A stretch of 64,000 nt of DNA from IMG/VR virus record IMGVR_UViG_3300032050_000002; one strand, 5' to 3'. The translations under genes were made by a program, and so were the position numbers. Source of the stretch: a virus. Its lineage: Duplodnaviria > Caudoviricetes. The stretch's first letter is position 1. Each line of letters starts with the position of its first letter. Below are positions 1-15,281 of the stretch, one piece after another. The notes below the pieces were generated by a model. The model did no database searches and was not told the origin of the DNA. It worked only from the letters and a program-made list of their open reading frames with translations.

Positions 1-2
1 AT

Positions 3-59
3 GAAACTGATGATGAACTTATTAATATGTATACTAATTTGAGATATAATAGAAAATAA
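3..59 (+). CDS. 3' end of a CDS running in from the left window edge
   Basis: Frame ETDDELINMYTNLRYNRK* is open from the edge to TAA 57-59. Confidence 0.4.
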   Translation, partial: ETDDELINMYTNLRYNRK

Positions 60-161
60 TAATACTTTAAACAACCATTATATTAGAAGGGTCTAAAACT
101 GAAAAAAAAATCTGGAAAAAATTTTATAAAATTCAATATATTTATATATAAAAAATACATT

Positions 162-662
162 ATGAAAAAAACTATACGATTAACAGAATCAGATTTGATT
201 CGACTCGTTAAACGAGTTGTTAATGAACGAGAAGAAGGTGAGAATATGATTCGTATCCCAAAAGAATATGGTGGAGTTGTAATGGAACTTGGGAAATCCT
301 CAACACCTGAAGAAATTATGGACAGTTATAATACAATGGTTGAGGAAGGAACCCCACTTGTAAGTTATTCTGATGGTGTATTCTATAATCAGAATGATGA
401 AGAGATTTCTGTGGATGTGGTACTTGATGAATTGAATTATTCAATTACAGGTGGTGAGGAAGATGATGATACGATAGGACCCTCACCTAAAAGAAAAAGA
501 TTTGGTGATGGAGGTGAATCCGAGTTTTTCTTAACGGATAATATTATATTTAAACGTTTTAACGGTAGATTGGGTTTCTTCTACCAACCATCAAAAAATG
601 GTGGAGGTATTAGTTTATCAGACGAACAAAAGGAAATGTTAATTAATTTTTTATCTAAATAA
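162..662 (+). CDS. Hypothetical protein with N-terminal KKTIRLTESDL motif (putative virion-targeted)
   Basis: 166-aa ORF; upstream TATTTATA; N-terminal motif shared with many ORFs here. Confidence 0.8.
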   Translation: MKKTIRLTESDLIRLVKRVVNEREEGENMIRIPKEYGGVVMELGKSSTPEEIMDSYNTMVEEGTPLVSYSDGVFYNQNDEEISVDVVLDELNYSITGGEEDDDTIGPSPKRKRFGDGGESEFFLTDNIIFKRFNGRLGFFYQPSKNGGGISLSDEQKEMLINFLSK

Positions 663-702
663 AAAATATTGAGCCCCTCTCAATAAAAGAATTGTTAAAA
701 CG

Positions 703-733
703 ACCCCATCTTATTTTAGGTGGGGTTTTTTAT
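703..733 (+). terminator. Intrinsic terminator
   Basis: ACCCCA(TC)...(GG)TGGGGT stem followed by a T tract. Confidence 0.7.
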
Positions 734-749
734 TTTAAAAAAAAATTAT

Positions 750-757
750 TATCTTTG
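750..757 (+). promoter_or_regulatory. Bacteroidota sigma-A -7 element (TATCTTTG)
   Basis: TAnnTTTG 4 nt upstream of ATG 762. Confidence 0.7.
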
Positions 758-761
758 TGGT

Positions 762-1226
762 ATGATTTCGGATAAATTAAAACAGGTTATCTTTAAGGAG
801 TTATATTATCAACTTGGTAAGGTTGAGATTATTCCTTATCAAGATAGTATATTTTTTATCCATAGGGAAAATAAGTATTGGTATTTTGAATTTGAAAAGT
901 GTGGAAGGTTATGGTGGAGATACGATTTCTTTAATGATTTTTTTAAGATATTTTCTTTAAGTATTGAGGACTATACAAAGATTATTTCTGAATGGGTGGA
1001 AGAGGTATTAAATCATAAGGTATCTACAACGCAGGTTGCGACTTCAATTGGAATCGAAGAGGCGGAAGAGGTATTAAATTGTAAGGTATCTACAACTAAT
1101 TCATACTTCACTCACTCTATTGAAAAGGTGGAAGAAGTATTAAATCATAAGGTATCTACAACTTCAATGTTTGAAATTGATGATGATAATAGTGTGGAAG
1201 AGATATTATCACATACTAATAAATAA
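762..1226 (+). CDS. Hypothetical protein with C-terminal 22-aa repeats (EEVLNHKVSTT + variable 10-11 aa)
   Basis: Start moved to ATG 762 behind the promoter; paralog of the next ORF. Confidence 0.8.
   Translation: MISDKLKQVIFKELYYQLGKVEIIPYQDSIFFIHRENKYWYFEFEKCGRLWWRYDFFNDFFKIFSLSIEDYTKIISEWVEEVLNHKVSTTQVATSIGIEEAEEVLNCKVSTTNSYFTHSIEKVEEVLNHKVSTTSMFEIDDDNSVEEILSHTNK
995..1226 (+). repeat. CRISPR-like array inside a CDS: 3 near-identical 36-bp repeats plus a degenerate fourth, with three unrelated 30-bp spacers
   Basis: Repeats at 995-1030, 1061-1096, 1127-1162 (consensus GGTGGAAGAGGTATTAAATCATAAGGTATCTACAAC), degenerate copy from 1193; no cas gene in the window. Confidence 0.75.
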
Positions 1227-1234
1227 ATTTAAAG

Positions 1235-1756
1235 ATGGTATCGGATAAGTTAAAACAAATTATCTTTAATGAGTTATATACACAACTAAAGGATGTTGAG
1301 ATTATTCCTTATAATGGGAGCGTATGGTTTATTAATAGAGATGAGAAGTATTGGTATCTTGAATTAAATCCTAATAATCATTTATGGTGGAGGTATTCTT
1401 TCTTTGTGGATTTTTTTCATTTGTTTTCCCTTGAGATTAAAGAATATGAACCCCTTATTAGAGAATGGACCGAAAATATATTAAATCATAAGATATCTAA
1501 AATCACAATAGGTCATTATGGGTGCAGACAATTGCTCGAACAGATGTTAGATTGTAATATTGAAAGCTCCAATCATTCTGAATATAATATTGAGTTTGTT
1601 TCTAATTATAATATCCTAACAACTGGTGGAAATGGTTTTCACTATGATAAACTATTTGATAATGTTTTGGAAACCACTAAGATTGAAAGTTCTTCTTTCG
1701 CTAAGGTTACCCTTACCAAAAATATCGATATTATCTTAAATCAACCGGATGTATAG
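1235..1756 (+). CDS. Paralog of the 762-1226 protein with degenerate ~22-aa repeats
   Basis: Shared N-terminus SDKLKQxIFxELY...EIIPY...KYWY...LWWRY. Confidence 0.8.
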   Translation: MVSDKLKQIIFNELYTQLKDVEIIPYNGSVWFINRDEKYWYLELNPNNHLWWRYSFFVDFFHLFSLEIKEYEPLIREWTENILNHKISKITIGHYGCRQLLEQMLDCNIESSNHSEYNIEFVSNYNILTTGGNGFHYDKLFDNVLETTKIESSSFAKVTLTKNIDIILNQPDV

Positions 1757-1834
1757 ACCGACCCGTCCGAACTCACTTCGTTCGTGGTTCAATCCCCCCG
1801 CCCCCTTTTTTTGCTTAATGATATATTTATTGTT

Positions 1835-2218
1835 ATGAAATTTATAATAACGGAATCACAAGATGAAATGCTTAAGTTGGAAAGACAGTCCGATATTTTG
1901 TATAAATTATTTGAAATGATGTATCCTGACAATTATGATGTGGTGAGAGAATCATCTCGTTATGGTGATGAAACTGAAGTATATTCTAATGAAGAACGTG
2001 ACCAATTATTATTTTATTATAAATGGAGAAATAAAGAGTTTTATATTGGGACTACTTTTATTCAAGAGTTGTATGATATAACCCATCTTGATTTTTTAAA
2101 TCCTGGGTTATTAGAAACAGGGTCACCTGAAAGAGAAGAGTTTGATAATATGATTAAGGTTTTTGCCAAAATACATTATGGGTGGACCGTAAATAAAGTT
2201 TGGCTTCATTGGTATTAA
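1835..2218 (+). CDS. Hypothetical protein (MKFIITESQ motif)
   Basis: Start moved to ATG 1835 after TATTTATT. Confidence 0.75.
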   Translation: MKFIITESQDEMLKLERQSDILYKLFEMMYPDNYDVVRESSRYGDETEVYSNEERDQLLFYYKWRNKEFYIGTTFIQELYDITHLDFLNPGLLETGSPEREEFDNMIKVFAKIHYGWTVNKVWLHWY

Positions 2219-2234
2219 AATATATTTATATTAT

Positions 2235-2570
2235 ATGAATCTTGGTGAATTATCAAACGCTCTTGAAAAATTATATAACTCAGTTGGTAACAAATATCTA
2301 ACGAGTAACTTTATTACCGAACCTTTTGAGTTCAAGGTTAATGTTATATATGATAGGGATAATGATATGTATGATTATATTATTAAAGTTTATAGCAATC
2401 CCGATATCCCCGAAGAATTTTTTTATAAACCCGAAGTCAAAGAAGAAAAGAACACAGATGGAATTCATATTTCAGTTTTGAAAAGTAAATTCAAAGAGTT
2501 AATACAATATGTTGAACCGAATTCCAAAAGATACTATGGGATTGAATTTATGAATAAGAAAAAGAAATGA
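2235..2570 (+). CDS. Hypothetical protein
   Basis: 111-aa ORF after TATTTATA. Confidence 0.7.
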   Translation: MNLGELSNALEKLYNSVGNKYLTSNFITEPFEFKVNVIYDRDNDMYDYIIKVYSNPDIPEEFFYKPEVKEEKNTDGIHISVLKSKFKELIQYVEPNSKRYYGIEFMNKKKK

Positions 2571-2914
2571 AATTTATAATATCCGAACATAGACTAGACA
2601 AATTAATATATTCATTTATTGATGAACATGTTAAAGATATGTTTAATAGAACACTTCCAGATAGTTTTATTGTATATAGTAAAAATACCGAAAATGAGTT
2701 TGATGATGATTTCGTTAAATTGGAATATGATAACTTTGACGGTAGATTATATATTGAAGACGGTTTTATAGGATTAATTTCTGATATGTTTGGTCTTCAT
2801 CCTACTGAAGCAATGGTTAAAATTCACGATTGGTTTGAGGACTATGAAGGAATTAGAGCTAAGTATTTAGAAGGTTGGTATAACGGTAAAAAGCACAAAA
2901 TTGATATGGAATAA
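2567..2914 (+). CDS. Hypothetical protein (MKFIISE motif)
   Basis: 115-aa ORF, ATGA overlap with the previous stop. Confidence 0.7.
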   Translation: MKFIISEHRLDKLIYSFIDEHVKDMFNRTLPDSFIVYSKNTENEFDDDFVKLEYDNFDGRLYIEDGFIGLISDMFGLHPTEAMVKIHDWFEDYEGIRAKYLEGWYNGKKHKIDME

Positions 2915-2960
2915 CTTACCATACTTTACACATTCCTTTTTTTATCCTATAATTCTTCTT

Positions 2961-3317
2961 ATGAAAAAATATCTTACACTTAAAAACTTGGGATGGTTAT
3001 TGACCATACTTGTTTCCGTTATGTTGGGAAGTTCTGCCCTGTCCAAATTACTTGGTACAAAAGAAATGATTGACAATTTTACATTTATGAATCTTCTACC
3101 CTATCTTGATTTATTAGGTATGGTTGAACTTGCTGGTGTAATTATGTTTATCGTTCCAAAAACATCTAAGTACGGTACGGTTCTATTATCTTCTTATTTA
3201 TCAGGAGCGGTTGCAATTCATCTTGCTATGATGGGAGGACAAGGAATTTTTATTCCGTTCTTATTGGGAGTTGTTGTATGGACGGGACATTGTCTTAGAA
3301 CTTATACTAAAGACTAA
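2961..3317 (+). CDS. DoxX-like membrane protein
   Basis: Four hydrophobic segments; S..SKL and LGMVELAG patterns typical of the DoxX-like family; start moved to ATG 2961. Confidence 0.65.
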   Translation: MKKYLTLKNLGWLLTILVSVMLGSSALSKLLGTKEMIDNFTFMNLLPYLDLLGMVELAGVIMFIVPKTSKYGTVLLSSYLSGAVAIHLAMMGGQGIFIPFLLGVVVWTGHCLRTYTKD

Positions 3318-3337
3318 CGATTAAACCAGTTAATTTT

Positions 3338-3367
3338 AAAACCCATATATTTTTTATGGGTTTTTTT
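3338..3367 (+). terminator. Intrinsic terminator
   Basis: AAAACCCATA...TATGGGTTTT stem plus T tract. Confidence 0.65.
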
Positions 3368-3398
3368 ATTTTACAATATATTTATATAAAAAAAAATT

Positions 3399-4106
3399 GT
3401 GAAACACTTATTAAATAATTTATCCGAAGAGGAAAAAAATAGAATTAGAGAACAACACGAAGGTGGAATGAAAGTTAATACCGAAAAGTTTAAATCTTTA
3501 TTAGAGTCAAAACTTGGAAATGCAAAACCATTGTTATCTGAGGCGGCCATCGAGTCTGAAATGGGTTCACTCCTCAATCAAGTAAAATCGATGGAAAAAA
3601 GTACACCTATTGGAGGATTATTATCAGTTCAAGCTTCAGGTGATAAAATTACCGCAAAACCTAAAAACAGTACAAATCCACCTTTAAGTATCGCATTATC
3701 TAGTCCTGAATTACCATCTTTAAGAATGGCGGGAGTTAAACAATATGGTGATACTATTTTCATAAATGCTAAAATTAAATTAAGAGATATTGGAAATATG
3801 GGATTAGTTGCTATTACTAAATTAGGTAGTATTACTATTGATATTTATGACGCAACAGGAAAAGTTAGATATACTGGTGAACAGTCTGAAGACGAAATAG
3901 GGTGGACAGGTTTAAGTGATAGTCAAGCAAAAAAGTTAGGATATAAAGACAGCGATGATATTATTTTAGGATTATATCTTGGTTTAGGCGCTGGAGGGGT
4001 TACTAGAATTTTAGATGCGTTACAAAAAGTACAATACAAACCGGGCGTTGTAAGTTCAATTAAAATACCTGTGGTTGGAAAAACAATTAATATTTCAAGA
4101 GTTTAA
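3399..4106 (+). CDS. Hypothetical protein (LSEEEKNRIREQH motif), GTG start
   Basis: 235-aa ORF after TATTTATA. Confidence 0.75.
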   Translation: MKHLLNNLSEEEKNRIREQHEGGMKVNTEKFKSLLESKLGNAKPLLSEAAIESEMGSLLNQVKSMEKSTPIGGLLSVQASGDKITAKPKNSTNPPLSIALSSPELPSLRMAGVKQYGDTIFINAKIKLRDIGNMGLVAITKLGSITIDIYDATGKVRYTGEQSEDEIGWTGLSDSQAKKLGYKDSDDIILGLYLGLGAGGVTRILDALQKVQYKPGVVSSIKIPVVGKTINISRV

Positions 4107-4108
4107 TT

Positions 4109-4399
4109 ATGAAAAAATTTATTATAACTGAAGAAGAAAAAAATAACATTTTAAAAATGCACAAAAAACATATCTTAAAAGAACAAGGAGATATGTTTGA
4201 CAAATATTTGGATATTGTATCTGATAAATTTGGAGGAGAAATATGTGACCCATCAAATAAAAATAATAAATATAAATTTGATGAAGACGTTAAGAATTTT
4301 CAAAAAGCGATTAACATAAAATATCCGGATACCAAAATGAAAGAAGATGGTATTTTAAATGCCGATGTTATAGAATATCTTTGTTATAGTGCAAATTAG
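4109..4399 (+). CDS. Small protein with ITEEEK motif and a peptidoglycan-binding-like helical domain
   Basis: DVKNFQKAIN...EDGILNADV resembles PG_binding_1 (VKxFQ...DGI). Confidence 0.55.
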   Translation: MKKFIITEEEKNNILKMHKKHILKEQGDMFDKYLDIVSDKFGGEICDPSNKNNKYKFDEDVKNFQKAINIKYPDTKMKEDGILNADVIEYLCYSAN

Positions 4400-4427
4400 C
4401 CCCACCAATGATAGTATCGTTGGTCCG

Positions 4428-4454
4428 ACCTCATCTTAATTGATGAGGTTTTTT
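4428..4454 (+). terminator. Intrinsic terminator preceded by an extra hairpin
   Basis: ACCTCATC-TTAATT-GATGAGGT-TTTTT; upstream hairpin CCAATGAT-AGT-ATCGTTGG. Confidence 0.7.
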
Positions 4455-4475
4455 ATTTTTATTATATTTATAACT

Positions 4476-4841
4476 ATGAAAGTAATCATAAAAGAATCTC
4501 GATTAAAAACTTATTTAGATAAGGTACATAATTTTGATTTAACAGGTAAAGTTAAATTGATTACGTCTTATGACGATATGCCGGATGTGTTTAAAGGATA
4601 TATAACCGAAAAAATGTATAATCACGTTACGGAAAGAATTAAAGAACCTTTTTTTGCACTTAAACTTAAAGATAAAATATTGGATGGTGTGTATTTATAC
4701 CGACACGGTAAGAAAACAAACACAACTTTAGTTATGGACGCTTATGGTTTTTTAGGAGATGAAGAAACTATTATGGATAAAATCAATTACCCGATAGGTC
4801 TTGGAATTGAACTTGATGAATTATTTATGTTGTATGTATAA
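4476..4841 (+). CDS. Hypothetical protein (MKVIIKES motif)
   Basis: Start moved to ATG 4476 after TATTTATA. Confidence 0.7.
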   Translation: MKVIIKESRLKTYLDKVHNFDLTGKVKLITSYDDMPDVFKGYITEKMYNHVTERIKEPFFALKLKDKILDGVYLYRHGKKTNTTLVMDAYGFLGDEETIMDKINYPIGLGIELDELFMLYV

Positions 4842-4894
4842 TTTTTTAAATTCTAAATATATTTATATATAAATAAAATTAATAAAAAAAAATA

Positions 4895-5185
4895 ATGGCA
4901 AAAAGAGTAATAAAATTAACTGAGTCGGATTTAATGAGACTTGTTAAGAAAGTAGTTAGTGAACAATCAACGTATACAAATCAAAGTGACCCAACTTTAG
5001 ATAAAGTATTAATGAGACTTAAAAATATGGGGTATGCGGTTAATACAAATACAAAAAATTTTCCTAAAGACGGTGAAACTTTAGACACCTACGTAATTTT
5101 TGAAAAAGAAGGTGAAGATGGTAAGTTTCATAGAGTTACTTATGAAGTTTATCCGGCTGGTGATTCAGGTGTTACATCTAAATAA
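4895..5185 (+). CDS. Hypothetical protein (KRVIKLTESDL motif)
   Basis: 96-aa ORF after TATTTATA. Confidence 0.75.
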   Translation: MAKRVIKLTESDLMRLVKKVVSEQSTYTNQSDPTLDKVLMRLKNMGYAVNTNTKNFPKDGETLDTYVIFEKEGEDGKFHRVTYEVYPAGDSGVTSK

Positions 5186-5216
5186 AATTAAACCTATCAT
5201 TCATAATATTTTCTGA

Positions 5217-5243
5217 AAAACCCCTCCAAATGAGGGGTTTTTT
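5217..5243 (+). terminator. Intrinsic terminator
   Basis: AAAACCCCTC-CAAAT-GAGGGGTTTT-TT. Confidence 0.75.
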
Positions 5244-5256
5244 ATTTTCTAAAATA

Positions 5257-5290
5257 TTTTTGGCAGATTCACAAAAAGTCCTTATCTTTG
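5257..5290 (+). promoter_or_regulatory. Bacteroidota sigma-A promoter, apparently leaderless
   Basis: TTTGGCAGATT upstream, TATCTTTG at 5283-5290, ATG at 5295. Confidence 0.75.
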
Positions 5291-5294
5291 TATT

Positions 5295-5429
5295 ATGAAA
5301 ATGAATGATATATTTGATGAAGGATTTGATTCCTTCTTTGATGGTGAAAGTGAGAACCCATACTCTATTGGTGATATTAGATATAAGGTTTGGGAATTAG
5401 GATATAATAACGCAAAATCAGGAAACTGA
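5295..5429 (+). CDS. 44-aa ribosome-modulation-factor (RMF)-like micro-ORF, not in the supplied track
   Basis: MKMNDIFDEGFDSFFDGESENPYSIGDIRYKVWELGYNNAKSGN fits the RMF pattern G(Y/F)...G...PY...W..G(W/Y)..A. Confidence 0.55.
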   Translation: MKMNDIFDEGFDSFFDGESENPYSIGDIRYKVWELGYNNAKSGN

Positions 5430-5431
5430 GA

Positions 5432-5534
5432 GAATTAAGTAGTGAATAGTCGGACTTTCTAGAGGTCAAAGCCGAAATGGATATGGTGCCCGAGACGGGT
5501 TCACGTTGTGGGTTCGAATCCCACCTTAATTCCA
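5432..5534 (+). ncRNA. tRNA-like RNA with acceptor stem and T-arm but no D or anticodon arm
   Basis: GAATTAAG/CTTAATTC 8-bp stem; GTGGG-TTCGAAT-CCCAC T-arm; GTGAA/TTCAC arm enclosing two hairpins. Confidence 0.65.
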
Positions 5535-5549
5535 ACAAATTTAAAACAA

Positions 5550-5774
5550 ATGAAAACATACACAGAAACAACATTAAGTGACTTCCAAGCGTGGAGTGGA
5601 GGTAAAGACACACAAGAAATTATTTTAGAACACGGTAAAGAAAAAGATTTTGACTATCTTATGGAAGAACTATATCCTGATGGTCTTAGTGAAACTCAAC
5701 TTAACGATATCCTTTGGTTTGAATCGGATTGGTTATTTGAAAATTTAGGGATTAATTTAGACGAAGAAGAATAA
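5550..5774 (+). CDS. Conserved-looking hypothetical protein (FQAWSGG...ELYPDG...LNDILWF)
   Basis: Start moved to ATG 5550, since the upstream extension lies in the RNA element. Confidence 0.7.
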   Translation: MKTYTETTLSDFQAWSGGKDTQEIILEHGKEKDFDYLMEELYPDGLSETQLNDILWFESDWLFENLGINLDEEE

Positions 5775-5793
5775 TAATTTAAAAACAAAAACT

Positions 5794-6147
5794 ATGACAA
5801 TTGAACAAATTAAAACAGAAATGAACTCATTAATGGAAAAAGTATCACAGTTAGAAAAAAATAATGCAAATGTTGCATTAACGCAAGAACAATTAACTAA
5901 GATAGTTAAAACAGTGGTTGAGGACACGACAAGGGAAATTAGAGATAATATTAGAGGAAACATTGATTTCATTGATGATTACGTTGAGTTAAGTATGGAT
6001 AACAGAGAAGTGTATGTTGATGTTAATCAACGTTCAATTGAAGATGAGATTGTGTCTATGGTTGACGCTAATGGTCTTACTCACGCTATGGATGATGAAC
6101 TATTAGAAGACTATGTTGCCAATTTAATCTTGAGAGTTACTCTATGA
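5794..6147 (+). CDS. Hypothetical protein with N-terminal coiled coil
   Basis: 117-aa ORF. Confidence 0.7.
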   Translation: MTIEQIKTEMNSLMEKVSQLEKNNANVALTQEQLTKIVKTVVEDTTREIRDNIRGNIDFIDDYVELSMDNREVYVDVNQRSIEDEIVSMVDANGLTHAMDDELLEDYVANLILRVTL

Positions 6148-6332
6148 CAAATAAGGAAGTTGAAAAAATAAGATTGGAGGCTTTACTCGGTAGTGTTGAA
6201 AAATACCTCAACTTTATGGTTGAGTTCAGTAAGAAACCTGATTACCGAGGAGATTTAAGTGAAGAGATTAAAAGACTTAAAGATGAATCCGACTCAATTA
6301 AAGATAGGTTAATGGAATTAACCCCACTGTAA
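6144..6332 (+). CDS. Hypothetical protein
   Basis: 62-aa ORF, ATGA overlap. Confidence 0.6.
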   Translation: MTNKEVEKIRLEALLGSVEKYLNFMVEFSKKPDYRGDLSEEIKRLKDESDSIKDRLMELTPL

Positions 6333-6361
6333 AAAAGTGGGGTTTTGATGTATTTATATGT

Positions 6362-6754
6362 ATGAAAAAACTATCAGATAACGAAAAGATAGAGAGAATG
6401 GTTAAAATAATGACCGATTACTTTAATGTTAATAATAAGGTAAAAGGTGATTATGCCGATTGGGATGATAATGGGATAATTTATACATTCAAATTTGTTC
6501 CTGTAGAAATGGTAGTTAATAAAAACTTAGGAGAGTTTTATACAACAGAAAACTGCGAGTTTGAGGGACATATAAAATTAAGAGTTACTGATATACAAGT
6601 TAGTGATTATGATGAATCAGATTGGGAACAAATGAATTATGAGGATGATTTACCTGAATTTGTTTGGGAAGGTGAACTTGAAAACATTGAGGATGAATTG
6701 TATCAATATTTACCTCAAATATGTTTAAGAGCAAAATTTGTCTTTAACGATTAA
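6362..6754 (+). CDS. Hypothetical acidic protein
   Basis: 130-aa ORF after TATTTATA. Confidence 0.7.
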   Translation: MKKLSDNEKIERMVKIMTDYFNVNNKVKGDYADWDDNGIIYTFKFVPVEMVVNKNLGEFYTTENCEFEGHIKLRVTDIQVSDYDESDWEQMNYEDDLPEFVWEGELENIEDELYQYLPQICLRAKFVFND

Positions 6755-6772
6755 ATACTATATTTATACTAG

Positions 6773-7939
6773 ATGAGAGAATTAATAAGACAAGTATTAA
6801 GAGAGGCTTTAGGTGTACCATCAGGTTCTATTGAATCTGGTGAAATATTATATGACTTAATATTAAAAAAATTAAAAGTCCTTCCAATAGATTTGGATGA
6901 GGATTCCACTTTTAATATGAGAACAAATTTTAGTATATCAGATTATAAAATTAAAAAAGTTATATTAAATATTACTTTTCATAAAGACAATGCAATTCCT
7001 GATGTTCATTACTATTCTATGGGTTTTAAATCTGTATCAAGATATGACCCAACAAGAAGACCAAGATTAATTAATATTATCCAACCAAATACAATTGACG
7101 TAATGATTAATTTTGCCGGACCTGAAGATACTCAAAGAAAAGATTTAATAAACTATTTTAAAAGTGATAAGACAGATATTGTAAGTTCTTTAAGTCACGA
7201 ACTTGGACACGCATATAATATCTATAAGAAAAAATTTACAGGTATTGGCTCACAAGCAGAATATAATGCTTATCAAAAAATTTCATTTCCTTTTTATGAA
7301 ATTAGACAATTTATGTTTAATCTTTATTACATTCATTCTGTTGAAAATATTGTAAGACCTATTGAAGTTGCATCACTTATGAGAAGTAGTAATGTGAATA
7401 GAGAAAATTTTTACGATTTTATTACCAATAATAAAACATATGCCAAACTAAAAGAGATTGGTAATTTTTCGGTGGATAAAATGATTGAGAGTCTTAAATT
7501 AGAATCCGATAAGATTAGAGAGTTTTTAGACCATATTGGAGTTGATACTGATAATTTAGAAACTGATGATGAATTAGTTAATGAGCTATTAAGAATTGTC
7601 TATGTTAATATTGCCAACAATAAGGTTGAGATTGCAAAACAAATGATGACGACAAATGCTTTTGAAGATTTAATGGGATTTATGGGAAGTAAGGAAGAAT
7701 TTTTTCATAAGTTAGCATCTGGATTTGTTAAATATCAAGAAAGGCCAATCGATTTCTTTAGAAGAGAAGAAAGAAACTTTAAAACAATTTCAGAAAAAAT
7801 GATAAAGAAAATTTCCAAATTATATGATATGGCAAAAGTAGACAGCTCCTCAATTAAAGATTGGGATTTACATCATAAAATAAATAAAACCGGGGAACAG
7901 TTTGAAACCGAGATTAAGTTTAAAAGAAAATTAAGATGA
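6773..7939 (+). CDS. Hypothetical protein with HExxH motif (putative zincin-like)
   Basis: LSHELGHAY; N-terminal MRELIRQVLRE. Confidence 0.6.
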   Translation: MRELIRQVLREALGVPSGSIESGEILYDLILKKLKVLPIDLDEDSTFNMRTNFSISDYKIKKVILNITFHKDNAIPDVHYYSMGFKSVSRYDPTRRPRLINIIQPNTIDVMINFAGPEDTQRKDLINYFKSDKTDIVSSLSHELGHAYNIYKKKFTGIGSQAEYNAYQKISFPFYEIRQFMFNLYYIHSVENIVRPIEVASLMRSSNVNRENFYDFITNNKTYAKLKEIGNFSVDKMIESLKLESDKIREFLDHIGVDTDNLETDDELVNELLRIVYVNIANNKVEIAKQMMTTNAFEDLMGFMGSKEEFFHKLASGFVKYQERPIDFFRREERNFKTISEKMIKKISKLYDMAKVDSSSIKDWDLHHKINKTGEQFETEIKFKRKLR

Positions 7940-8487
7940 AAATAATAATATCCGAAGACCAAAGAATTAGATTATTATATGAACAAGGTTCATTTGACAA
8001 ATTTGATAAAATATTTTCAAGCTCAGACTCCGCGGAAACGTTTAATCAAAGTCAAAAAGAAATGTGGACTAAACTTAGAAATTTAAATCCTTCGGCATTC
8101 GATTTCGCGGTTCAAATTGGTCTATGGTTTGTTCCTTTTGTTGGACCATACCTATCAGCGACTTATGGCACGGTACAAGGTGTTAATACTTTACAAGATG
8201 GTTATAAAAATAAAGACAATAACAAAATAACTGCAGGAATTATTGAGATTATAACAGGTCCTTTATTTTTGGCTAGAGCAGTTAAAGCACTTAAAGCGCT
8301 TGGAGCAACTGACGAAATTTTATCAGTTTTAACAAAAATAAATAAATTAGGTATTCCTATTTTAATAAGTAAAGGTAAAGAAACTTTTTTAAAATGGGTT
8401 GCCACTAATTTTCCTAAAGAACAAAAATTTATTTCTGATTTAATTAATAATAAAAAAACTCTAAATCAAATAATATTTTCAAAATAA
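7936..8487 (+). CDS. Hypothetical protein (MKIIISE motif) with a hydrophobic glycine-rich hairpin
   Basis: 183-aa ORF; IGLWFVPFVGPYLSATYG segment. Confidence 0.7.
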   Translation: MKIIISEDQRIRLLYEQGSFDKFDKIFSSSDSAETFNQSQKEMWTKLRNLNPSAFDFAVQIGLWFVPFVGPYLSATYGTVQGVNTLQDGYKNKDNNKITAGIIEIITGPLFLARAVKALKALGATDEILSVLTKINKLGIPILISKGKETFLKWVATNFPKEQKFISDLINNKKTLNQIIFSK

Positions 8488-8489
8488 TT

Positions 8490-8738
8490 ATGAAAAAAAT
8501 AAGATTAACGGAAGAAGAACTAACAAGAATTGTTAAAAGAACTCTAATTGAAATGGAGGACGGTTCACAAGATTTTAATGAAGTTATTAAATGTATTAAT
8601 GATTATTTTAAATTTAAAGCAAGAGACCTTTCTAAAGAAAAAATACTTGAGAGAATTAATAGTTTAAAGTTTGAACTTAGATTATTAGAAAATGAATATG
8701 GGATTAAAAAATCCACATCAAGAAGACCATTCAAATAA
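8490..8738 (+). CDS. Hypothetical protein (KKIRLTEEEL motif)
   Basis: 82-aa ORF. Confidence 0.7.
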   Translation: MKKIRLTEEELTRIVKRTLIEMEDGSQDFNEVIKCINDYFKFKARDLSKEKILERINSLKFELRLLENEYGIKKSTSRRPFK

Positions 8739-8742
8739 TTAT

Positions 8743-8768
8743 ACCCCCAACTATACAGGGGGTTTTTT
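8743..8768 (+). terminator. Intrinsic terminator
   Basis: ACCCCC...GGGGGT plus T tract. Confidence 0.65.
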
Positions 8769-8817
8769 ATTTAAAATAAATTTATTAATTTTGTAATGTA
8801 TGATAAAAAAGGAAACT

Positions 8818-8946
8818 ATGAATCAAACAACAGAAAACAATAAAACAAAAGAAGAAAAAATTGAAATAACAAATACTGAAGATAAGACTTTATTAGAGAA
8901 ACTTCAGTTACGACTTGAGAAAATTAAAAAAATTATAAAACCATAG
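8818..8946 (+). CDS. 42-aa hypothetical micro-ORF, not in the track
   Basis: MNQTTENNKTKEEKIEITNTEDKTLLEKLQLRLEKIKKIIKP; TAATTTTG upstream. Confidence 0.4.
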   Translation: MNQTTENNKTKEEKIEITNTEDKTLLEKLQLRLEKIKKIIKP

Positions 8947-8974
8947 GTTTCATAATTGAAGATATTTATATTTA

Positions 8975-9313
8975 ATGAAATTTATTATTAAAGAATCTCA
9001 GCAAAATTTTATCTGGTTATTAAGAAGACTTAATGAGGAAGATATTAAAGAACACTTACGAGAAATTATTGTTGAGGGGTTTGATTATGACAAACCTTGT
9101 GATTATACTTACGATAACGGATTTAATGATTGGGTCACCTCAATTATCGAAGGTTCGGTAGATACTTTCATATATTCTTATGATGATAAATTTAAATCTA
9201 ACGAAGGGGTGGAAGAACTTAGAAAGTTTTTAATAGACTACGTTAGAAGGGGATATGGTAGAAGTTTAAAAAAATACTACACAGAAGAAATTGAGGATAA
9301 TGAATGTGGTTAA
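8975..9313 (+). CDS. Hypothetical protein (MKFIIKES motif)
   Basis: 112-aa ORF after TATTTATA. Confidence 0.7.
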   Translation: MKFIIKESQQNFIWLLRRLNEEDIKEHLREIIVEGFDYDKPCDYTYDNGFNDWVTSIIEGSVDTFIYSYDDKFKSNEGVEELRKFLIDYVRRGYGRSLKKYYTEEIEDNECG

Positions 9314-9331
9314 CCTAATATTTATATTGAT

Positions 9332-10093
9332 ATGAAAAAAGTTTTAAAATTAAGTGAGAATGAACTTATTAACGTATTGAAGAATATAGTTACTGAGGCA
9401 AGATATTCTCCAACCGCAAATATATTAAGAGGTAACATTAGAAAATCAATTAAAACAATTGCTATTCTAACGGCAGAAAATCCAAAAGGTGTTGAGGCTA
9501 GTAAGGAATATAATGAAGTAGCAAATGAAAAATTAAAAGATGTTTTAAGAGCAGGTAGATTTGGTTATAGACCTGTTGACGGTTCTTACGGTACTAAAGA
9601 AAATTCTTTTATCATTAATAACATATCTTTGGATGATGCTATTAATATTGGCAAGAAATTCAAACAGGACACAATTGTATTTGGTGAGGTTGTTGGTGGT
9701 GATGACGAAAAATCATTTATGACTTTTAAGATGGTTGGTACCGACCCCGATAAACCAAAAGAATATCGTAAAATAGTTGCGGTAAGTGATGTGTTTATTA
9801 ATAGAAAAGATGCCGAAGATTTCTATTCTGAAATTGGTGGAAGAAAATTTGTATTACCTTTCTATGGAACAATAGATAAATTTGTTGGAGAAGATGACAA
9901 AGTTTATAAAATAGAAAAAGATTATTCAAGAACAAAGTGGGAAGGTGGTAAAGCCGAACCTACGGATATTAAAATAAGTCCTGATGAAGACGAATTAAAT
10001 GAACTACAGGAAAGGGCAATTCGTACTTGTTGTTCTACCTCATACAATTTAAGAGGAAGAATTGATAAGATAATTAAAGAATCTTATAAATAA
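9332..10093 (+). CDS. Hypothetical protein with LTAENP motif (DUF3293-like) and LSENEL N-terminal motif
   Basis: AILTAENP...GSYG..ENSF...FKQDTI pattern. Confidence 0.55.
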   Translation: MKKVLKLSENELINVLKNIVTEARYSPTANILRGNIRKSIKTIAILTAENPKGVEASKEYNEVANEKLKDVLRAGRFGYRPVDGSYGTKENSFIINNISLDDAINIGKKFKQDTIVFGEVVGGDDEKSFMTFKMVGTDPDKPKEYRKIVAVSDVFINRKDAEDFYSEIGGRKFVLPFYGTIDKFVGEDDKVYKIEKDYSRTKWEGGKAEPTDIKISPDEDELNELQERAIRTCCSTSYNLRGRIDKIIKESYK

Positions 10094-10107
10094 CAGTATT
10101 TATTTAA

Positions 10108-10851
10108 ATGAGGTTATTAAATGAAATAGAAAGGATTAAAAATATCATGGGGATTATCTCCGAGCAAGAAATCCGGTCACAAACAAATACAGAATTAAAT
10201 AATCCTAAAAATGAAGAAGAGTTTATCAATTTAGTAAAATCTAAAGGGTTTCAGAAAATAGATAGTTCAAATTTTGAAAGTTCAGAAGCTAATAAATTTT
10301 GGACATCAAGCACTAAGGTAAATGTGAATGATTTTCAATGGTTATATATAAATTTTGATACAAAAGTTTACGTTTATAAATTTAAAAAATCACCTTCAAT
10401 TAAGTTTGGACAAAGAGCTTATTTTTCACCAAAAGAAAATAAAGATTATCCTGCTATAGGATATTTAATAGAATCATTCCCTATTCAAGATTGGCAAAAA
10501 CAAAAAATATCTGAATTAATAATTGATAAGGAAAAGTTGGACTTAGGATATGATTTGGATTCTGTTGTTAGAAGAATTGATAGTTCTAGACAAATTTGGG
10601 GACCTGGAGATATTACAAATGAAAACGGTCAATATTTTTATAAGGGAAAACCTCTTAATCAAGATTATGTTAAATCTTATATAACCGGCACTAAATTTAA
10701 TGTTAATGAAATACCTAATTTAATTAATAGTTTATCACCTGAAGATTTGAATAAACCGATAACGAGCCAAAATGGTGAAAAATTTGACACTATAAATGAT
10801 TATTTTAATCAGTTTAAAAAAGAAGCTCAGGATTTAAAATTTATTGCTTAA
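10108..10851 (+). CDS. Hypothetical protein (LLNEIERIKNIMGIISEQ motif)
   Basis: 247-aa ORF. Confidence 0.7.
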   Translation: MRLLNEIERIKNIMGIISEQEIRSQTNTELNNPKNEEEFINLVKSKGFQKIDSSNFESSEANKFWTSSTKVNVNDFQWLYINFDTKVYVYKFKKSPSIKFGQRAYFSPKENKDYPAIGYLIESFPIQDWQKQKISELIIDKEKLDLGYDLDSVVRRIDSSRQIWGPGDITNENGQYFYKGKPLNQDYVKSYITGTKFNVNEIPNLINSLSPEDLNKPITSQNGEKFDTINDYFNQFKKEAQDLKFIA

Positions 10852-11291
10852 TGACCAAAGAACAGAGATTAGAAAATGTTATTAAAAAAACCGCATTAAG
10901 TATTCTAAAAGAAAAAGAAGGTTTACCTGAAAATTTTAGTGATGTTGCGGTTAATGTTTATCCATCAAAATATGGTCTTGGGGCTAAGATATCGATTCTA
11001 ATGAAAGAACCTTTTACTGAAGAAGAATCTGATTTTTTTGATGTAGTAGTATATGAAATAAAACAAGTCATTAGTAAAGTTTTTAAAGATACCCTAACTT
11101 ATGGAGTCTCCTCCTCAATTTCAACTATGGATAACTACGAAAAAGTAGATAAACCATATTATGAAAAATTATGGGTCAGGTTCAAAAGTTCTAATTTATC
11201 TGAAAATAAAAAACCTAAAAATGTTTTAATTACAGAAAATCAATTAAAAACATTGATTAGACATTCCAAAAATGAAAACAGAAATAACTAA
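10851..11291 (+). CDS. Hypothetical protein with a C-terminal VLITENQL motif
   Basis: 146-aa ORF, TAATG coupling. Confidence 0.65.
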   Translation: MTKEQRLENVIKKTALSILKEKEGLPENFSDVAVNVYPSKYGLGAKISILMKEPFTEEESDFFDVVVYEIKQVISKVFKDTLTYGVSSSISTMDNYEKVDKPYYEKLWVRFKSSNLSENKKPKNVLITENQLKTLIRHSKNENRNN

Positions 11292-11586
11292 TAAACAATT
11301 AGAAGTTATAAAAACTAACATTCAAGAGGTTATTAATGGCTCATTGGATGCTATTAGGAAAGAATCTGAAGAATGGGGTTTGGGAGAAATGGATGAAATT
11401 AATGAACTGGAATCTATTGATAAAATCGTAATTGATAGAGTTGTTCCTTATGTTGGATTAACAGTTTATGTAAAACTATATATTAATAACGAACGTGATG
11501 AATTTGATAATATTTTATCAGAATTAAATTACAGGGTTCAAAAATGGTTACCTAACGTAATAATTTTTATAGATTCTATTATTTAG
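11272..11586 (+). CDS. Hypothetical protein
   Basis: 104-aa ORF. Confidence 0.65.
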   Translation: MKTEITNKQLEVIKTNIQEVINGSLDAIRKESEEWGLGEMDEINELESIDKIVIDRVVPYVGLTVYVKLYINNERDEFDNILSELNYRVQKWLPNVIIFIDSII

Positions 11587-11609
11587 AGATATTTATAAAA
11601 AAAAATAAT

Positions 11610-11999
11610 ATGAAGAAAGTTGTAAAAATAACCGAACAGGATTTGGTTAATATAGTTAGAAAAACAATCCAAGAACAAGAAGTGGAAGAAGGTCTGTTTG
11701 ACGGAGTTAAAGATGCTTACCAAGGACTTAAAGGAGTTTGGAGAGGGGAAGGATATGACTATTACAAATATACAAGTTCTATTAGAAATATTGCAAAAAA
11801 ATTAAAAAAACTTGATGAGCCAAATCATAAAACTATGATTGAATTAAACTCATTAAAAAGTAAGGTTGGTGCATCTAAAATGGACCCCACAAAAAAACAA
11901 AATTTAGTCGATACTATTGACAATGCAATACGATATTTTAACGCTTATGCAGGTCTTATTGATAGGATAGACCAAATCGCTAGCACTAAATTAGCCTAA
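11610..11999 (+). CDS. Hypothetical protein (KKVVKITEQDL motif)
   Basis: 129-aa ORF after TATTTATA. Confidence 0.75.
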   Translation: MKKVVKITEQDLVNIVRKTIQEQEVEEGLFDGVKDAYQGLKGVWRGEGYDYYKYTSSIRNIAKKLKKLDEPNHKTMIELNSLKSKVGASKMDPTKKQNLVDTIDNAIRYFNAYAGLIDRIDQIASTKLA

Positions 12000-12003
12000 T
12001 AAT

Positions 12004-12129
12004 ATGGATATAATATTCCTACAAAAAAGATTGGAGTATCTTGTTAAAAACGAGGAGTATGAAATTGCTACAAGAATAAAAAAATGGATTGATGAGCTAA
12101 AAACAAAATACGAGACACAATACAATTAA
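12004..12129 (+). CDS. 41-aa stand-alone UVR (UvrB/C)-like coiled-coil micro-ORF, not in the track
   Basis: LEYLVKNEEYEIATRIKKWIDEL fits L...(V/A)..ExYExAxxI(R/K)..I..L. Confidence 0.5.
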   Translation: MDIIFLQKRLEYLVKNEEYEIATRIKKWIDELKTKYETQYN

Positions 12130-12147
12130 TAGAGATATTTATATATT

Positions 12148-13347: not shown

Positions 13348-13355
13348 AAAAAAAT

Positions 13356-13386
13356 AAACCCCCTCTGATAAAAAAGAGGGGTTTTT
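13356..13386 (+). terminator. Intrinsic terminator
   Basis: AAACCCCCTC...GAGGGGTTTTT. Confidence 0.7.
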
Positions 13387-13403
13387 GATTTAAAAGAGAT
13401 TAT

Positions 13404-13784
13404 ATGTGGGCGGATTTTATAAAAACAATAACAGAATTATTTAATAGAATAGATAAAGACGATAAAGAACTTAGAGAAAAAATATCAATATTACTTTATG
13501 AAATGCGACTTTTATTACTTAGTGTTTCAGATAATTTAGAAAAAAATGAAGAGGTTAATATCTGTTCTCAAACTATGGAATCTTTAACTAATGAAATATA
13601 TGAAAGTTTAAAAAATTACATTAGAGTTGAGGATATGGATAAAACTTACAAAATACTAAAACATTGTTCTCATATTGATGTGGAATTTGATGAGTATGAC
13701 AATAATAAAAAATCTATATTCTTAAAAGAAGTTGCGGAAGAAATTAAATCGTTATCCTTTTCGGTGTGTTTTATTGACAACTAA
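13404..13784 (+). CDS. Hypothetical protein
   Basis: 126-aa ORF. Confidence 0.65.
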   Translation: MWADFIKTITELFNRIDKDDKELREKISILLYEMRLLLLSVSDNLEKNEEVNICSQTMESLTNEIYESLKNYIRVEDMDKTYKILKHCSHIDVEFDEYDNNKKSIFLKEVAEEIKSLSFSVCFIDN

Positions 13785-13808
13785 ATAAAAATAAATTATA
13801 ATTTATAT

Positions 13809-13997
13809 ATGAATAACGAACAAAAAGCGGCCGCCTACGGACAATTATTAAATGAACATACCAGAATTGGTAATCAAATTGCCGAAATTAAAGGACAAAA
13901 TCTTGAATTAAACCAACAACAACTTCAAAAAGTTAAACAACTTGAATCTTTACAAGTTAAGATAATGAGAGATATTAATAGGTTATTCACTTCTTAA
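13809..13997 (+). CDS. Small coiled-coil protein
   Basis: 62-aa ORF. Confidence 0.65.
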   Translation: MNNEQKAAAYGQLLNEHTRIGNQIAEIKGQNLELNQQQLQKVKQLESLQVKIMRDINRLFTS

Positions 13998-14026
13998 TTT
14001 ACAAACCTATTGGATATTTATTGTAA

Positions 14027-15257: not shown

Positions 15258-15281
15258 TGAAATTATTTATATTATATAAAT

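Follow-up and report, generated by a model that had tools for sequence, protein, structure and literature searches.

A probable Cas13b-type CRISPR repeat-spacer array in the reading frame of a lake jumbo-phage gene

Known viral arrays and the array of this phage

CRISPR arrays are viewed as a memory that does not code for protein. Hypervariable cassettes with sharp borders inside a translated gene, as in the phage array described here, are known from cyanobactin PatE and from diversity-generating retroelements. Phages are known to carry arrays or mini-arrays without cas genes, cyanophage N-1 being one example (PMC4916379; reviewed in PMC11656645). In addition, viruses encode Racrs, small non-coding RNAs that mostly consist of single repeats at least 90% identical to the host repeat; the screen that described them masked open reading frames and found no type VI mimics (PMC10651486). 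On the bacterial side, the type VI-B array of Flavobacterium columnare, with its 36-bp repeats, acquires spacers via the Cas1 of a type II-C system (PMC8092290).

We analysed a window of 64,000 nucleotides (the whole stretch of DNA under study) from a lake jumbo phage, and found that the tail of one of its genes is a Cas13b-type CRISPR repeat-spacer array, translated in frame. The literature searched contained no description of such a translated array in a phage gene. Like the phage-borne cas-less arrays, this one combines a host-like viral repeat with a lack of cas genes and a presumed dependence on host Cas proteins; those arrays are non-coding, whereas the array found here is translated, stop-free and always fused to one domain, and it belongs to a set of VI-B-derived arrays that stay open across hundreds of jumbo-phage genes. 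Racr/SRU elements likewise imitate the CRISPR repeat of a host and have no neighbouring cas genes. In contrast to Racrs, the phage arrays carry 3-9 repeats and turning-over spacers, are located inside an mRNA, and reach no more than 69% identity with the VI-B repeats compared. The array thus differs from a Racr (non-coding, at least 90% repeat identity) in lying inside an open reading frame and in a best match of 25/36 among the VI-B repeats compared. Viral CRISPR-mimic screens that mask open reading frames (PMC10651486), as well as array finders that reject coding repeats, will miss this family of translated arrays. A diversity-generating retroelement was considered and rejected: five phage records gave no RVT_1 match, the array has neither reverse transcriptase nor template repeat, and spacers are replaced rather than mutated, with cassettes swapped as whole 30-nt units.

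Layout of the array gene, its paralog and its relatives

All the features described below lie on the + strand. The upstream gene ends in an intrinsic terminator (702..741) composed of a stem-loop at 702-727 and a T run, the one terminator-like site seen against 0.6 expected, so that the array gene opens a new transcription unit. A putative -7 promoter box, TATCTTTG, is located at 750..757, 4 nt 5′ of the ATG. The consensus of the Bacteroidota -7 box is TAnnTTTG, and the TATCTTTGTGGTATG context present at 750..757 also occurs 5′ of other genes in related phages.

The array gene (762..1226) encodes 154 amino acids from the ATG at 762, first a conserved N-domain (762..995; 78 codons, the last being an invariant Trp) and then the repeat-spacer array in the same frame. 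G995 is at once the last base of the N-domain and position 1 of the first repeat. Repeat 1 (995..1030) has 36 nt and reads GGTGGAAG...TCTACAAC; repeat 2 (1061..1096) differs from it by 3 mismatches and repeat 3 (1127..1162) by 1. The degenerate terminal repeat (1193..1228) encodes VEEILSHTNK followed by a stop codon at 1224-1226, an ending that is kept in the nearest relatives. The three near-identical repeats with a degenerate fourth that the initial annotation had reported were therefore recovered (0, 3 and 1 mismatches over 35 nt, with 0 matches expected in shuffled sequences), and its 66-nt period was confirmed to be in frame within the open reading frame 762-1226. The three spacers are, as had been claimed, exactly 30 nt long and without mutual similarity. 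Spacer 1 (1031..1060; 30 nt, 47% GC, peptide QVATSIGIEE) is common to the sister arrays L191 and L192. Spacer 2 (1097..1126; NSYFTHSIEK) is replaced by the unrelated GKAFDLAIPS in L191, a close relative, and spacer 3, at the trailer end (1163..1192; SMFEIDDDNS), is common to L191, L192 and P0004.

Because the spacers are unrelated, Tandem Repeats Finder missed the array and reported no 66-nt array in the window. An Rfam search with E values up to 10 gave no CRISPR-DR family, its sole match being the upstream terminator; Pfam, PADLOC and PHROGs assigned no family to either of the proteins encoded at 762-1226 and 1235-1756, and Foldseek found no informative match for the N-domain in the PDB or the AFDB clusters. 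AF2 confidently predicted a small alpha/beta fold for the N-domain (pLDDT ~90, residues 1-88). For the tail it gave no confident fold (pLDDT 26-52), and a solenoid-like tail was rejected.

The neighbouring gene (1235..1756) is a paralog with an N-domain at 1235-1468 and a fossil array at 1468-1756, in which a single recognisable repeat remains (1468-1503, 27/36). The tail of this paralog can be aligned, one unit at a time, with the intact arrays of distant relatives, so the view that it is a decayed paralog was correct. The fossil tail is fixed, and is conserved as an ordinary protein in more than 20 relatives.

More than 487 relatives of the array gene were found in lake metagenomes and jumbo-phage contigs, whereas tblastn of GenBank phages gave no homolog. 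They have in common a conserved domain of ~78 residues, followed by 2-8 repeat-spacer units, and the phage records examined contain up to four array copies each. The phage itself occurs in sequencing runs of 18 studies; the four runs examined consisted of contigs, probably of DNA. When arrays were sought by DNA pattern alone, 39 of 39 were in-frame fusions to the N-domain and none was non-coding. Arrays of related phages differ by whole units and are mosaic, with whole-unit replacement among close relatives. In one recombinant, P0124, a paralog-type N-domain is joined to a live array.

Unit boundaries and likeness of the repeat to type VI-B

The geometry of the family is constant: with few exceptions, the units retrieved by the repeat consensus measure 66 nt, and a length of 10 residues is shared by 463 of 470 peptide spacers. 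Across 133 unique units, conservation is confined to positions 1-36, and positions 37-66 hold almost no information. The last spacer codon takes its third base from unit position 1, a G in 96% of the units, and 96.5% of the 463 peptide spacers end in a residue with an NNG codon. Position 37 falls on a Thr codon, at its free third base; the adjacent Thr codon is ACA in 98% of units. Comparison of divergent lineages showed a third-position synonymous identity of 0.83-0.86 in the repeats versus 0.47-0.58 in the N-domain, with the step located exactly at the first repeat; in the last 15 codons 5′ of this repeat, no leader conservation was found at the nucleotide level. These results indicate that the repeat-spacer unit is defined by its DNA and not by the protein, and that its boundaries are out of codon phase. 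The units show none of the whole-length alignability, graded divergence or codon-phase boundaries of an ordinary tandem-repeat protein.

This result bears on the reading of the gene as an ordinary hypervariable repeat protein, in which 22 residues would be the functional unit, homologous recombination within the constant segment would let co-infecting phages swap cassettes, and the CRISPR likeness would be convergent, with no Cas machinery involved. The mosaic arrays with their whole-unit replacement, the recombinant P0124, the open frame with its codon-phase composition, the absence of cas genes and the essentially negative protospacer searches are what such a protein would give. We nevertheless consider this explanation unlikely, since it leaves unexplained the source and exact length of the unrelated 30-nt inserts, the out-of-phase boundaries and the invariant G as third base of a random codon. 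Nor does it account for the in-register identity of 20-25/36 to VI-B repeats in the right leader-side orientation, to which we now turn.

The initial annotation had noted that geometry and repeat ends of this kind are characteristic of type II-C and VI-B arrays. The VI-B part held, with 20-25/36 identity to three Cas13b-adjacent repeats (24, 23 and 20 of 36 in register, compared with 10 ± 2.3 for the null; P ~1e-5), whereas the II-C part did not, the Flavobacterium II-C repeats giving only 10-16/36. The best identity to the VI-B repeats compared was 25/36, at most 69%, and VI-B repeats are identical among themselves at 25-26/36. The Flavobacterium II-C arrays compared combine a 36-nt repeat with spacers of 29-30 nt. 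When translated in the phage frame, VI-B repeats read ...L.*[KR]V[SDN]TT, and their in-frame TGA coincides with the most variable codon of the phage repeat. The phage repeat is in the crRNA-sense orientation and the coding sequence of the N-domain occupies the place of the leader. Judged by sequence comparison, the phage repeat is homologous to the VI-B repeats of Flavobacteriia and, with its 36 nt and 30-nt spacers, fits their GTTG...ACAAC family.

A genome-wide pattern carrying the phage repeat ends was used to scan for host arrays; among the matches listed there was one real array, the VI-B array of F. columnare, the others being chance. This array, adjacent to cas13b in L097 (PMC8092290), has a 36-nt repeat and a 30-nt spacer, as in the phage, and its repeat has the 3′ GGTATCTACAAC in common with the phage repeat. 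The arrays of Flavobacteriia resemble the phage array in how they are oriented with respect to the leader side and transcription, in a degenerate distal repeat, in polarised novelty and in the absence of cas1/cas2 in cis. In contrast, the phage array is without cas13b and is a wholly open reading frame fused to a conserved domain, the in-frame TGA of VI-B repeats has given way to sense codons, and the inner hairpin stem is not maintained. The pairing of GTGGA with TCTAC suggested earlier is possible, although the predicted fold is weak (-3.1 kcal/mol, z -0.48). The F. columnare repeat reaches -10.9 kcal/mol (z -2.5), while the predicted folding energies of the phage repeat lie between -3.1 and -6.5 kcal/mol (z between -0.5 and -1.4). 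Of 88 repeat variants, 34 preserve the outer stem, and none of the changes is compensated.

The proposal that the array is cas-less was borne out by five phage records, including a 100% complete one, in which no Cas1, Cas2 or Cas13b was found, the Cas13b HMM used being able to detect Cas13b in three Flavobacterium genomes. Any integrase would therefore have to be supplied by the host.

Spacer turnover, translation and the proposed origin of the tail

Spacers across the family proved not to be mutually alignable, as pairs match at either 0-3 or 8-10 of 10 residues. Their GC content is 41.1 ± 0.75%, versus 31-35% expected from the phage's own DNA or from Flavobacterium DNA; they thus stand at 41% GC within genomes of 29-33%, while real Flavobacterium CRISPR spacers have 33%. 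The amino-acid composition of the spacers is closer to that of translated random nucleotides (r 0.86) than to that of the phage proteome (r 0.75).

This composition counts against a multi-core RiPP-like precursor comparable to PatE, in which 12-residue recognition segments would flank excised and modified cores of 10 residues. Constant flanks around hypervariable cores, sharp boundaries at the DNA level and a long conserved N-terminal part recall such precursors. We regard this possibility as highly improbable, because the core positions show no conservation and a random-like composition, the N-terminal part is predicted to be a folded domain instead of a leader peptide, and the VI-B likeness and out-of-phase boundaries are left unexplained. 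Moreover, in contrast to PatE-type precursors, arrays had no maturation enzyme visible in their vicinity, and the four neighbouring proteins scanned matched neither a Pfam nor a PHROG family.

The arrays are polarised: unique units are found mostly at the domain-adjacent end, and 71% of first-position spacers are singletons versus 45-50% elsewhere. In orthologous arrays the trailer-end spacers are common and repeat mismatches increase distally. Spacer GC3 is 43% nearest the leader and falls with distance from it (rho -0.26, p 0.0024), whereas GC1 and GC2 are flat; total spacer GC showed no significant decrease along the array. Youngest spacers without codon-phase bias that acquire it with age are left unexplained by the hypervariable repeat protein, as are a composition resembling translated random DNA and a tail with no confident AF2 fold.

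Stop-codon avoidance was pronounced, with in-frame stops in 0.8% of the units versus 32-63% in the other five frames and ~50% expected. Translation of the array is selected. Purifying selection on spacer codons, which the initial annotation had taken as a sign against its proposal, was seen in part, as a weak constraint (dN/dS ~0.5). Old spacers ameliorate at third codon positions only, which together with this dN/dS indicates a constraint on the peptide or, at the least, on its decoding.

We favour, with a probability of roughly 55%, the reading that a jumbo-phage gene has domesticated a VI-B (Cas13b)-derived CRISPR array within its reading frame, where the array grows in a polarised manner and is translated. 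Two readings had been offered at the outset; the array captured into coding sequence fits better, and the pure decoy fits less, because every array found is in frame with the domain and stop-free. According to the domesticated-array reading, an integrase of the Cas1-Cas2 kind would add units where the domain meets the first repeat, and would most likely come in trans from a Bacteroidota host, as for the cas1-less VI-B arrays of F. columnare. Since 36 + 30 = 66 nt, or 22 codons, each insertion would preserve the frame. Insertions bearing a stop would be lost, and recombination between repeats would then remove and shuffle units. The product would be a small folded domain followed by a hypervariable, probably disordered tail, composed of 10-residue cassettes between constant segments of 12 residues. 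Where repeats decay, as in the paralog, turnover would end and the tail would be retained as an ordinary protein. The tail could serve in host interaction or counter-defence, and the array RNA could also titrate Cas13b. A point against the domesticated array is that recombination between repeats could by itself produce mosaic arrays and homogenise repeats.

We propose more tentatively that a CRISPR adaptation machine, most likely host Cas1-Cas2 acting in trans on a VI-B-type repeat, writes captured 30-bp DNA into this phage protein-coding gene. Spacer acquisition would then be a generator of protein diversity, each event giving a frame-safe 22-codon unit with a new cassette of 10 residues. If an adaptation integrase does add the units, spacer capture would here diversify a protein, a first case of its kind, and the gene would exemplify frame-safe DNA writing in nature (36 + 30 = 22 codons).

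The protospacer searches, whose complete failure would have spoken against a CRISPR origin, were almost empty and left one borderline match. A search of 1.2 Mb of related phage DNA with 127 candidate 30-mers yielded no protospacer for any flanked spacer in the set, the GenBank phages searched gave none, and four spacers compared with IMG/VR, and one with JGI metagenomes, retrieved sister arrays only. An origin of spacers from the phage's own genome (self-targeting) was discarded, as the apparent matches were to sequence 3′ of the terminal repeat and not to spacers. When 401 Flavobacterium genomes were searched, about 40 other spacers had no match, and what came up was for the most part AT-rich noise stemming from the N-domain region. 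The borderline match is a candidate protospacer of 27/30 (26/30 in an ortholog) in a Flavobacterium membrane-protein gene, with p ~0.02 after multiple testing; the remaining spacers of the same phage had no match in that genome.

The candidate protospacer is antisense to the host gene, so a guide would pair with the mRNA of this gene. It is one of the observations that a Cas13b decoy or guide array acting at the RNA level, as a type VI equivalent of RNA anti-CRISPRs or of cas-less phage arrays, would produce. Host Cas13b would bind or process the sense VI-B-like repeats of the mRNA and receive harmless or phage-chosen guides, translation serving expression only, for instance against premature termination or decay of untranslated RNA. 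The VI-B-like repeat with its crRNA sense on the coding strand, the conserved synonymous sites of the repeat and the lack of cas genes in these phages agree with this explanation, and repeat mimics are a proven anti-CRISPR strategy (PMC10651486). If the RNA does titrate Cas13b, this would supply the type VI equivalent that RNA anti-CRISPRs have so far lacked. We judge a decoy improbable, however, given that all arrays are in-frame fusions to the N-domain and none is non-coding, that old spacers ameliorate at third positions only with dN/dS ~0.5, and that the fossil paralog tail is conserved as protein despite repeat decay. The hairpin is weak and lacks compensatory changes, identity to the VI-B repeats compared is at most 69% against the 90% threshold for repeat mimics, and a decoy has no need of spacer turnover. 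RNA targeting is nonetheless a demonstrated weak point of jumbo phages, at least in a nucleus-forming one, which evades DNA-targeting systems yet is sensitive to Cas13 (10.1101/370791).

A repeat-spacer array in frame with a conserved domain

Three near-identical 36-nt repeats start at positions 995, 1061 and 1127 on the plus strand (0, 3 and 1 mismatches over 35 nt), and a degenerate fourth repeat, with a stop codon inside it, occupies 1193-1228 (+). The spacers between them are each exactly 30 nt long and mutually unrelated, and the 66-nt period remains in frame throughout the ORF 762-1226, so that both the array and its open frame were found as the initial annotation had described them. No near-identical repeats were expected from 100 shuffles. 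Tandem Repeats Finder missed the array, since no more than 36 bases of each 66-base unit recur.

A protein search recovered at least 487 relatives of this gene (E ≤ 0.001), which measure 132-266 aa in size steps of ~22 and share a layout of a conserved ~78-residue domain (N-domain) with an invariant Trp at its end, followed by 2-8 units, the degenerate repeat being the last. Each protein unit consists of VEEVLNHKVSTT and 10 unrelated residues. Unit length, whose variation had been named as a point of refutation, was constant, with 463 of 470 peptide spacers having exactly 10 residues. Relatives were located on contigs in IMG/VR as long as 326 kb, and the name of one gives an uncultured Caudovirales phage as its source; 18 studies of lakes and other freshwater have metagenomes in which the locus is present. 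Four whole phage records were assembled, with one or four array genes per phage, some in tandem. When IMG/VR was searched with the DNA repeat alone, no translation being involved, 39 arrays were retrieved; the N-domain lay in frame 5′ of the array in 39/39 and none was non-coding (0/39). The DNA statistics that follow refer to ~130 distinct units from a few phage lineages.

Structural predictions by AF2 gave the N-domain a confident small alpha/beta fold (pLDDT about 90), whose last helix enters the first repeat, and a tail with pLDDT 33-43. A structure search with the N-domain retrieved no relative of known function, and no family match for the array proteins was found in Pfam, PHROG or PADLOC. 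In agreement with the proposal that the array is cas-less, protein and HMM searches of five phage records, including one that is 100% complete, detected no Cas1, Cas2 or Cas13b; no reverse transcriptase was found in these records either.

The repeat at the DNA level and its likeness to type VI-B

Alignment of 133 unique 66-nt units showed that positions 1-36 are conserved and that positions 37-66 are essentially without information. The repeat/spacer boundaries do not coincide with codon boundaries. The repeat opens with the third base of the final spacer codon (position 1, G in 96%), the other two bases of that codon being random; at its other end, position 37 supplies the unconstrained third base of a Thr codon, whereas the adjoining Thr codon reads ACA in 98% of cases. 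Given this phase and the G at position 1, the final residue of 96.5% of spacers is one that an NNG codon can encode, and Met and Trp are over-represented. That a recombining repeat protein reached this arrangement by convergence is improbable, since the origin, the exact length and the phase of the inserts would be left unexplained.

Between lineages with N-domains 35-70% identical, third-position identity at identical residues was 0.47-0.58 in the N-domain versus 0.83-0.86 in the repeat. Across 13 divergent lineages, synonymous-site behaviour changes exactly at the first repeat; synonymous sites of repeat codons 1-3, 6 and 8 were 100% identical, and the 15 codons preceding the first repeat showed no conservation, nor does a conserved leader directly adjoin that repeat. 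The repeat is therefore either constrained at the nucleic-acid level or homogenised. The predicted fold of the window repeat variant is weak, with -3.1 kcal/mol (z -0.5), compared with -10.9 (z -2.5) for the F. columnare VI-B repeat. All five outer pairs were kept in only 34 of 88 repeat variants, with 0 compensated changes, and Rfam returned no CRISPR family match.

Three bona fide VI-B repeats, each adjoining a Cas13b gene, served as reference: that of F. columnare (L097), which was among the matches listed in a genome-wide scan for host arrays, and those of two other genomes (G160 and G721). Compared with them on its coding strand and in register, the phage repeat agreed at 24, 23 and 20 of 36 positions; other phage variants scored 17-25/36 and the VI-B repeats among themselves 25-26/36. 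Random 36-mers of phage genomes gave 10.1 ± 2.3 of 36 (P about 1e-5; 3e-5 for the two VI-B repeats found independently of the search pattern). Flavobacterium II-C repeats matched the phage repeat at 10-12/36 (reverse complement, 15-16/36). II-C arrays of Flavobacterium, with a 36-nt repeat and 29-30-nt spacers, resemble the phage ruler, but the sequence of their repeat is unlike that of the phage. Of the II-C/VI-B character originally assigned, the 36 + ~30 ruler common to both types was retained, whereas the repeat itself proved VI-B-like and not II-C-like. Two Flavobacterium genomes carry such II-C arrays, with a 36-nt repeat and 29-30-nt spacers, adjacent to cas1, at L236 (G668:C55) and L237 (G006:C61), and G668 is at the same time the Flavobacterium genome containing the single candidate protospacer considered below.

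Read in the phage frame, the VI-B repeats yield LGKPLF*RVSTT, LYMVLI*KVDTT and L*LPLF*KVNTT, and the phage repeat yields VEEVLN[H/S/C]KV[S/D]TT. The TGA at nt 20-22, present in 3/3 VI-B repeats, coincides with the most variable codon of the phage repeat (CAT 71, AGT 21, TGC 12, TGT 4, others), and a single substitution separates TGA from TGC as well as from TGT. Moreover, the N-domain occupies the leader side of VI-B arrays, and transcription would enter the array from it; the F. columnare VI-B array is transcribed from the leader side into the array (PMC8092290). From these comparisons we conclude that the phage repeat probably derives from a VI-B repeat made translatable. Two Flavobacterium VI-B leaders (L097, 1390-1533; L196, 4905-5017) have a common motif, ATTGCTCTTTGACAT, ~90-110 nt before the first repeat, and no counterpart of it was seen in the phage N-domain coding sequence.

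The VI-B likeness would also agree with array RNA serving as a Cas13b decoy or guide, an explanation that we regard as unlikely because strict fusion to the N-domain and codon-level constraint do not fit it. Of the two readings offered by the initial annotation, capture into coding sequence is therefore favoured over an RNA decoy.

Turnover and translation of the spacers

Arrays located behind the same N-domain (≥88% identical) have far-end spacers in common and different domain-side spacers, together with internal gains, losses and mosaics. Repeat mismatches increase toward the far end, and singleton spacers amounted to 71% at the first position versus 45-50% elsewhere, which bears out the polarised gain that was to be looked for. 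Lake metagenomes contained many alternative 28-31-nt inserts between the same repeats. Domain-side novelty with far-end sharing is the population pattern of a CRISPR array. Spacer pairs had either 0-3 or 8-10 identical residues out of 10, with almost none between, as anticipated for unrelated spacers and unlike tandem duplication; spacers are replaced as wholes, without gradual divergence. The close relative L191, a sister array, carries window spacers 1 and 3 around an unrelated middle cassette, with extra units beside the N-domain. In the metagenomic protein P0124 (132 aa), an N-domain 91% identical to that of the window paralog precedes a live array whose spacers IHRTIDDTLL and HHVITTQALL belong to relatives of the first gene. 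P0124 is a recombinant across the first repeat, and recombination between repeats clearly acts too.

An in-frame stop was present in 1 of 133 units (0.8%), compared with 32-63% of units in the other five frames and ~50% in random sequence of the same composition, so that the postulated stop-codon avoidance was observed and the arrays are under selection for translation. In the L020 array (493-690) an in-frame TAG is the last codon of a spacer, and in the L013 array (4211-4310) a TAA is the second; both arrays run one or two repeat-spacer units beyond the stop. Stops therefore arise, the DNA structure is independent of frame and the array can outrun the ORF. Spacer GC3 was 35.7%, versus 41.7 ± 1.4% when random sequence was modelled with a filter against stops (z -4.3). 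It was 43.2% in leader-most spacers and then 39.6, 31.9 and 33.8% by thirds away from the N-domain (Spearman -0.26, p 0.0024), GC1 and GC2 being flat. In our reading, young inserts would enter regardless of frame and older ones would drift to the phage AT bias at synonymous sites only. Differences between shared spacers (14 synonymous, 21 non-synonymous) gave a dN/dS of roughly 0.5.

Amino-acid composition of the spacers correlated with translated random nucleotides at r 0.86 versus r 0.75 with the phage proteome; Arg is more frequent than Lys, and the proportions of Cys, His and Trp are high. Spacer GC was 41.1 ± 0.75%; stop-free 30-mers would give 31-35% from the phages' own genomes and 34.9% from Flavobacterium DNA, and 44 real Flavobacterium CRISPR spacers had 32.9%. 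Among 127 candidate 30-mers, no flanked spacer matched 1.2 Mb of related phage DNA; apparent own-phage matches were rejected, as the sequence lay 3′ of the terminal repeat. IMG/VR searches with four spacers and JGI metagenome searches with spacer 1 found sister arrays only, and searches of GenBank phages were empty. Among 401 Flavobacterium genomes, the first spacer of the L002 array matched a membrane-protein gene at 27/30, antisense (E 4.6e-5 per genome, about 0.02 after multiplication by 401). The orthologous gene of a second species was matched at 26/30, its mismatches falling at other positions. A second array query against Flavobacterium genomes gave AT-rich noise only, and the other arrays of the phage carrying the matching spacer did not match the genome of the candidate protospacer. 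The spacer comparison thus provided one candidate protospacer, a lead and not a result, amid otherwise empty phage, IMG/VR, JGI and GenBank searches.

The paralog at 1235-1756 has the same N-domain and one repeat at 27/36, and each unit of its tail has a counterpart in alignments with the still intact arrays of distant relatives, in keeping with the decay ascribed to it. Its orthologs (>20 contigs) have a fixed tail, conserved as much as the N-domain and varying by point changes and a few whole-unit indels; AF2 gave no confident fold for the paralog tail. Repeat decay would halt cassette turnover, the former array staying as an ordinary protein, and this persistence speaks for some use of the tail as protein.

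All in all, a VI-B-derived array domesticated into a gene best covers all these data. It accounts for the unit (its exact ruler, its boundaries out of phase and the synonymous conservation of its repeat) and likewise for the polarity, the unadapted composition of young spacers and the existence of a fossil paralog. We infer that units of 36 + 30 nt would be added beside the N-domain by an integrase of the Cas1-Cas2 kind acting in trans, as acquisition does in the cas1-less F. columnare VI-B array (PMC8092290). Every insertion would preserve the frame because 66 nt equal 22 codons, stop-carrying insertions would be purged and recombination would reshuffle units; the integrase step and any function are putative. 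Phage-borne cas-less arrays (PMC4916379; reviewed in PMC11656645) and RNA anti-CRISPRs (Racr; PMC10651486) have been described, and full-text literature searches found no description of a translated CRISPR array. The Racr screen reported mimics for every CRISPR type but VI and masked ORFs beforehand (PMC10651486), and so would not have picked up the present family. Sensitivity to Cas13, together with escape from DNA-targeting systems, has been reported for a nucleus-forming jumbo phage (10.1101/370791), and such phages would then have reason to cope with Cas13.

The phage contig around the array

The window has a GC of 28-31% and mainly small ORFs on a single strand. It encodes thymidylate synthase (18145-19083), a full-length DnaK (34583-36433), a GMP-reductase/IMPDH-like enzyme (39397-40428), a T4-type RNA ligase (61819-63039), tRNA-Cys (52576-52647) and tRNA-Glu (54967-55039), an auxiliary set typical of jumbo phage, as well as peptidoglycan-binding TseH-like lysins. 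In an ORF of 1,855 aa (21197-26764, minus strand; local GC 34%, above its surroundings), a glycine-rich domain occurs together with PKD-like and SprB repeats, and the C-terminal part is a type IX secretion sorting domain; this ORF points to a Bacteroidota host. The window is read as part of a jumbo phage infecting such a host. Many small same-strand ORFs with the N-terminal motif K.I.LTESDL.RLVK.VV (162-662, 4895-5185 and others within 1-20000), without a Pfam or PHROG family, form a second multi-copy phage family.

Upstream of the array gene, a terminator (stem-loop 702-727 plus T run) is followed at 750-757 by TATCTTTG, a box in agreement with the established consensus of the Bacteroidota -7 promoter element; the two suggest that the gene forms its own transcription unit. 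At 1757-1815, directly 3′ of the paralog stop, a short hairpin is found together with a GGTTCAATCC resembling a tRNA T-arm, a run rich in C and a T run. ARAGORN called no tRNA there, and the element is possibly a terminator or what remains of a tRNA-like sequence. Similar elements also lie 3′ of array genes in L191 and L192, the sister arrays, and in the loci L012 and L014.
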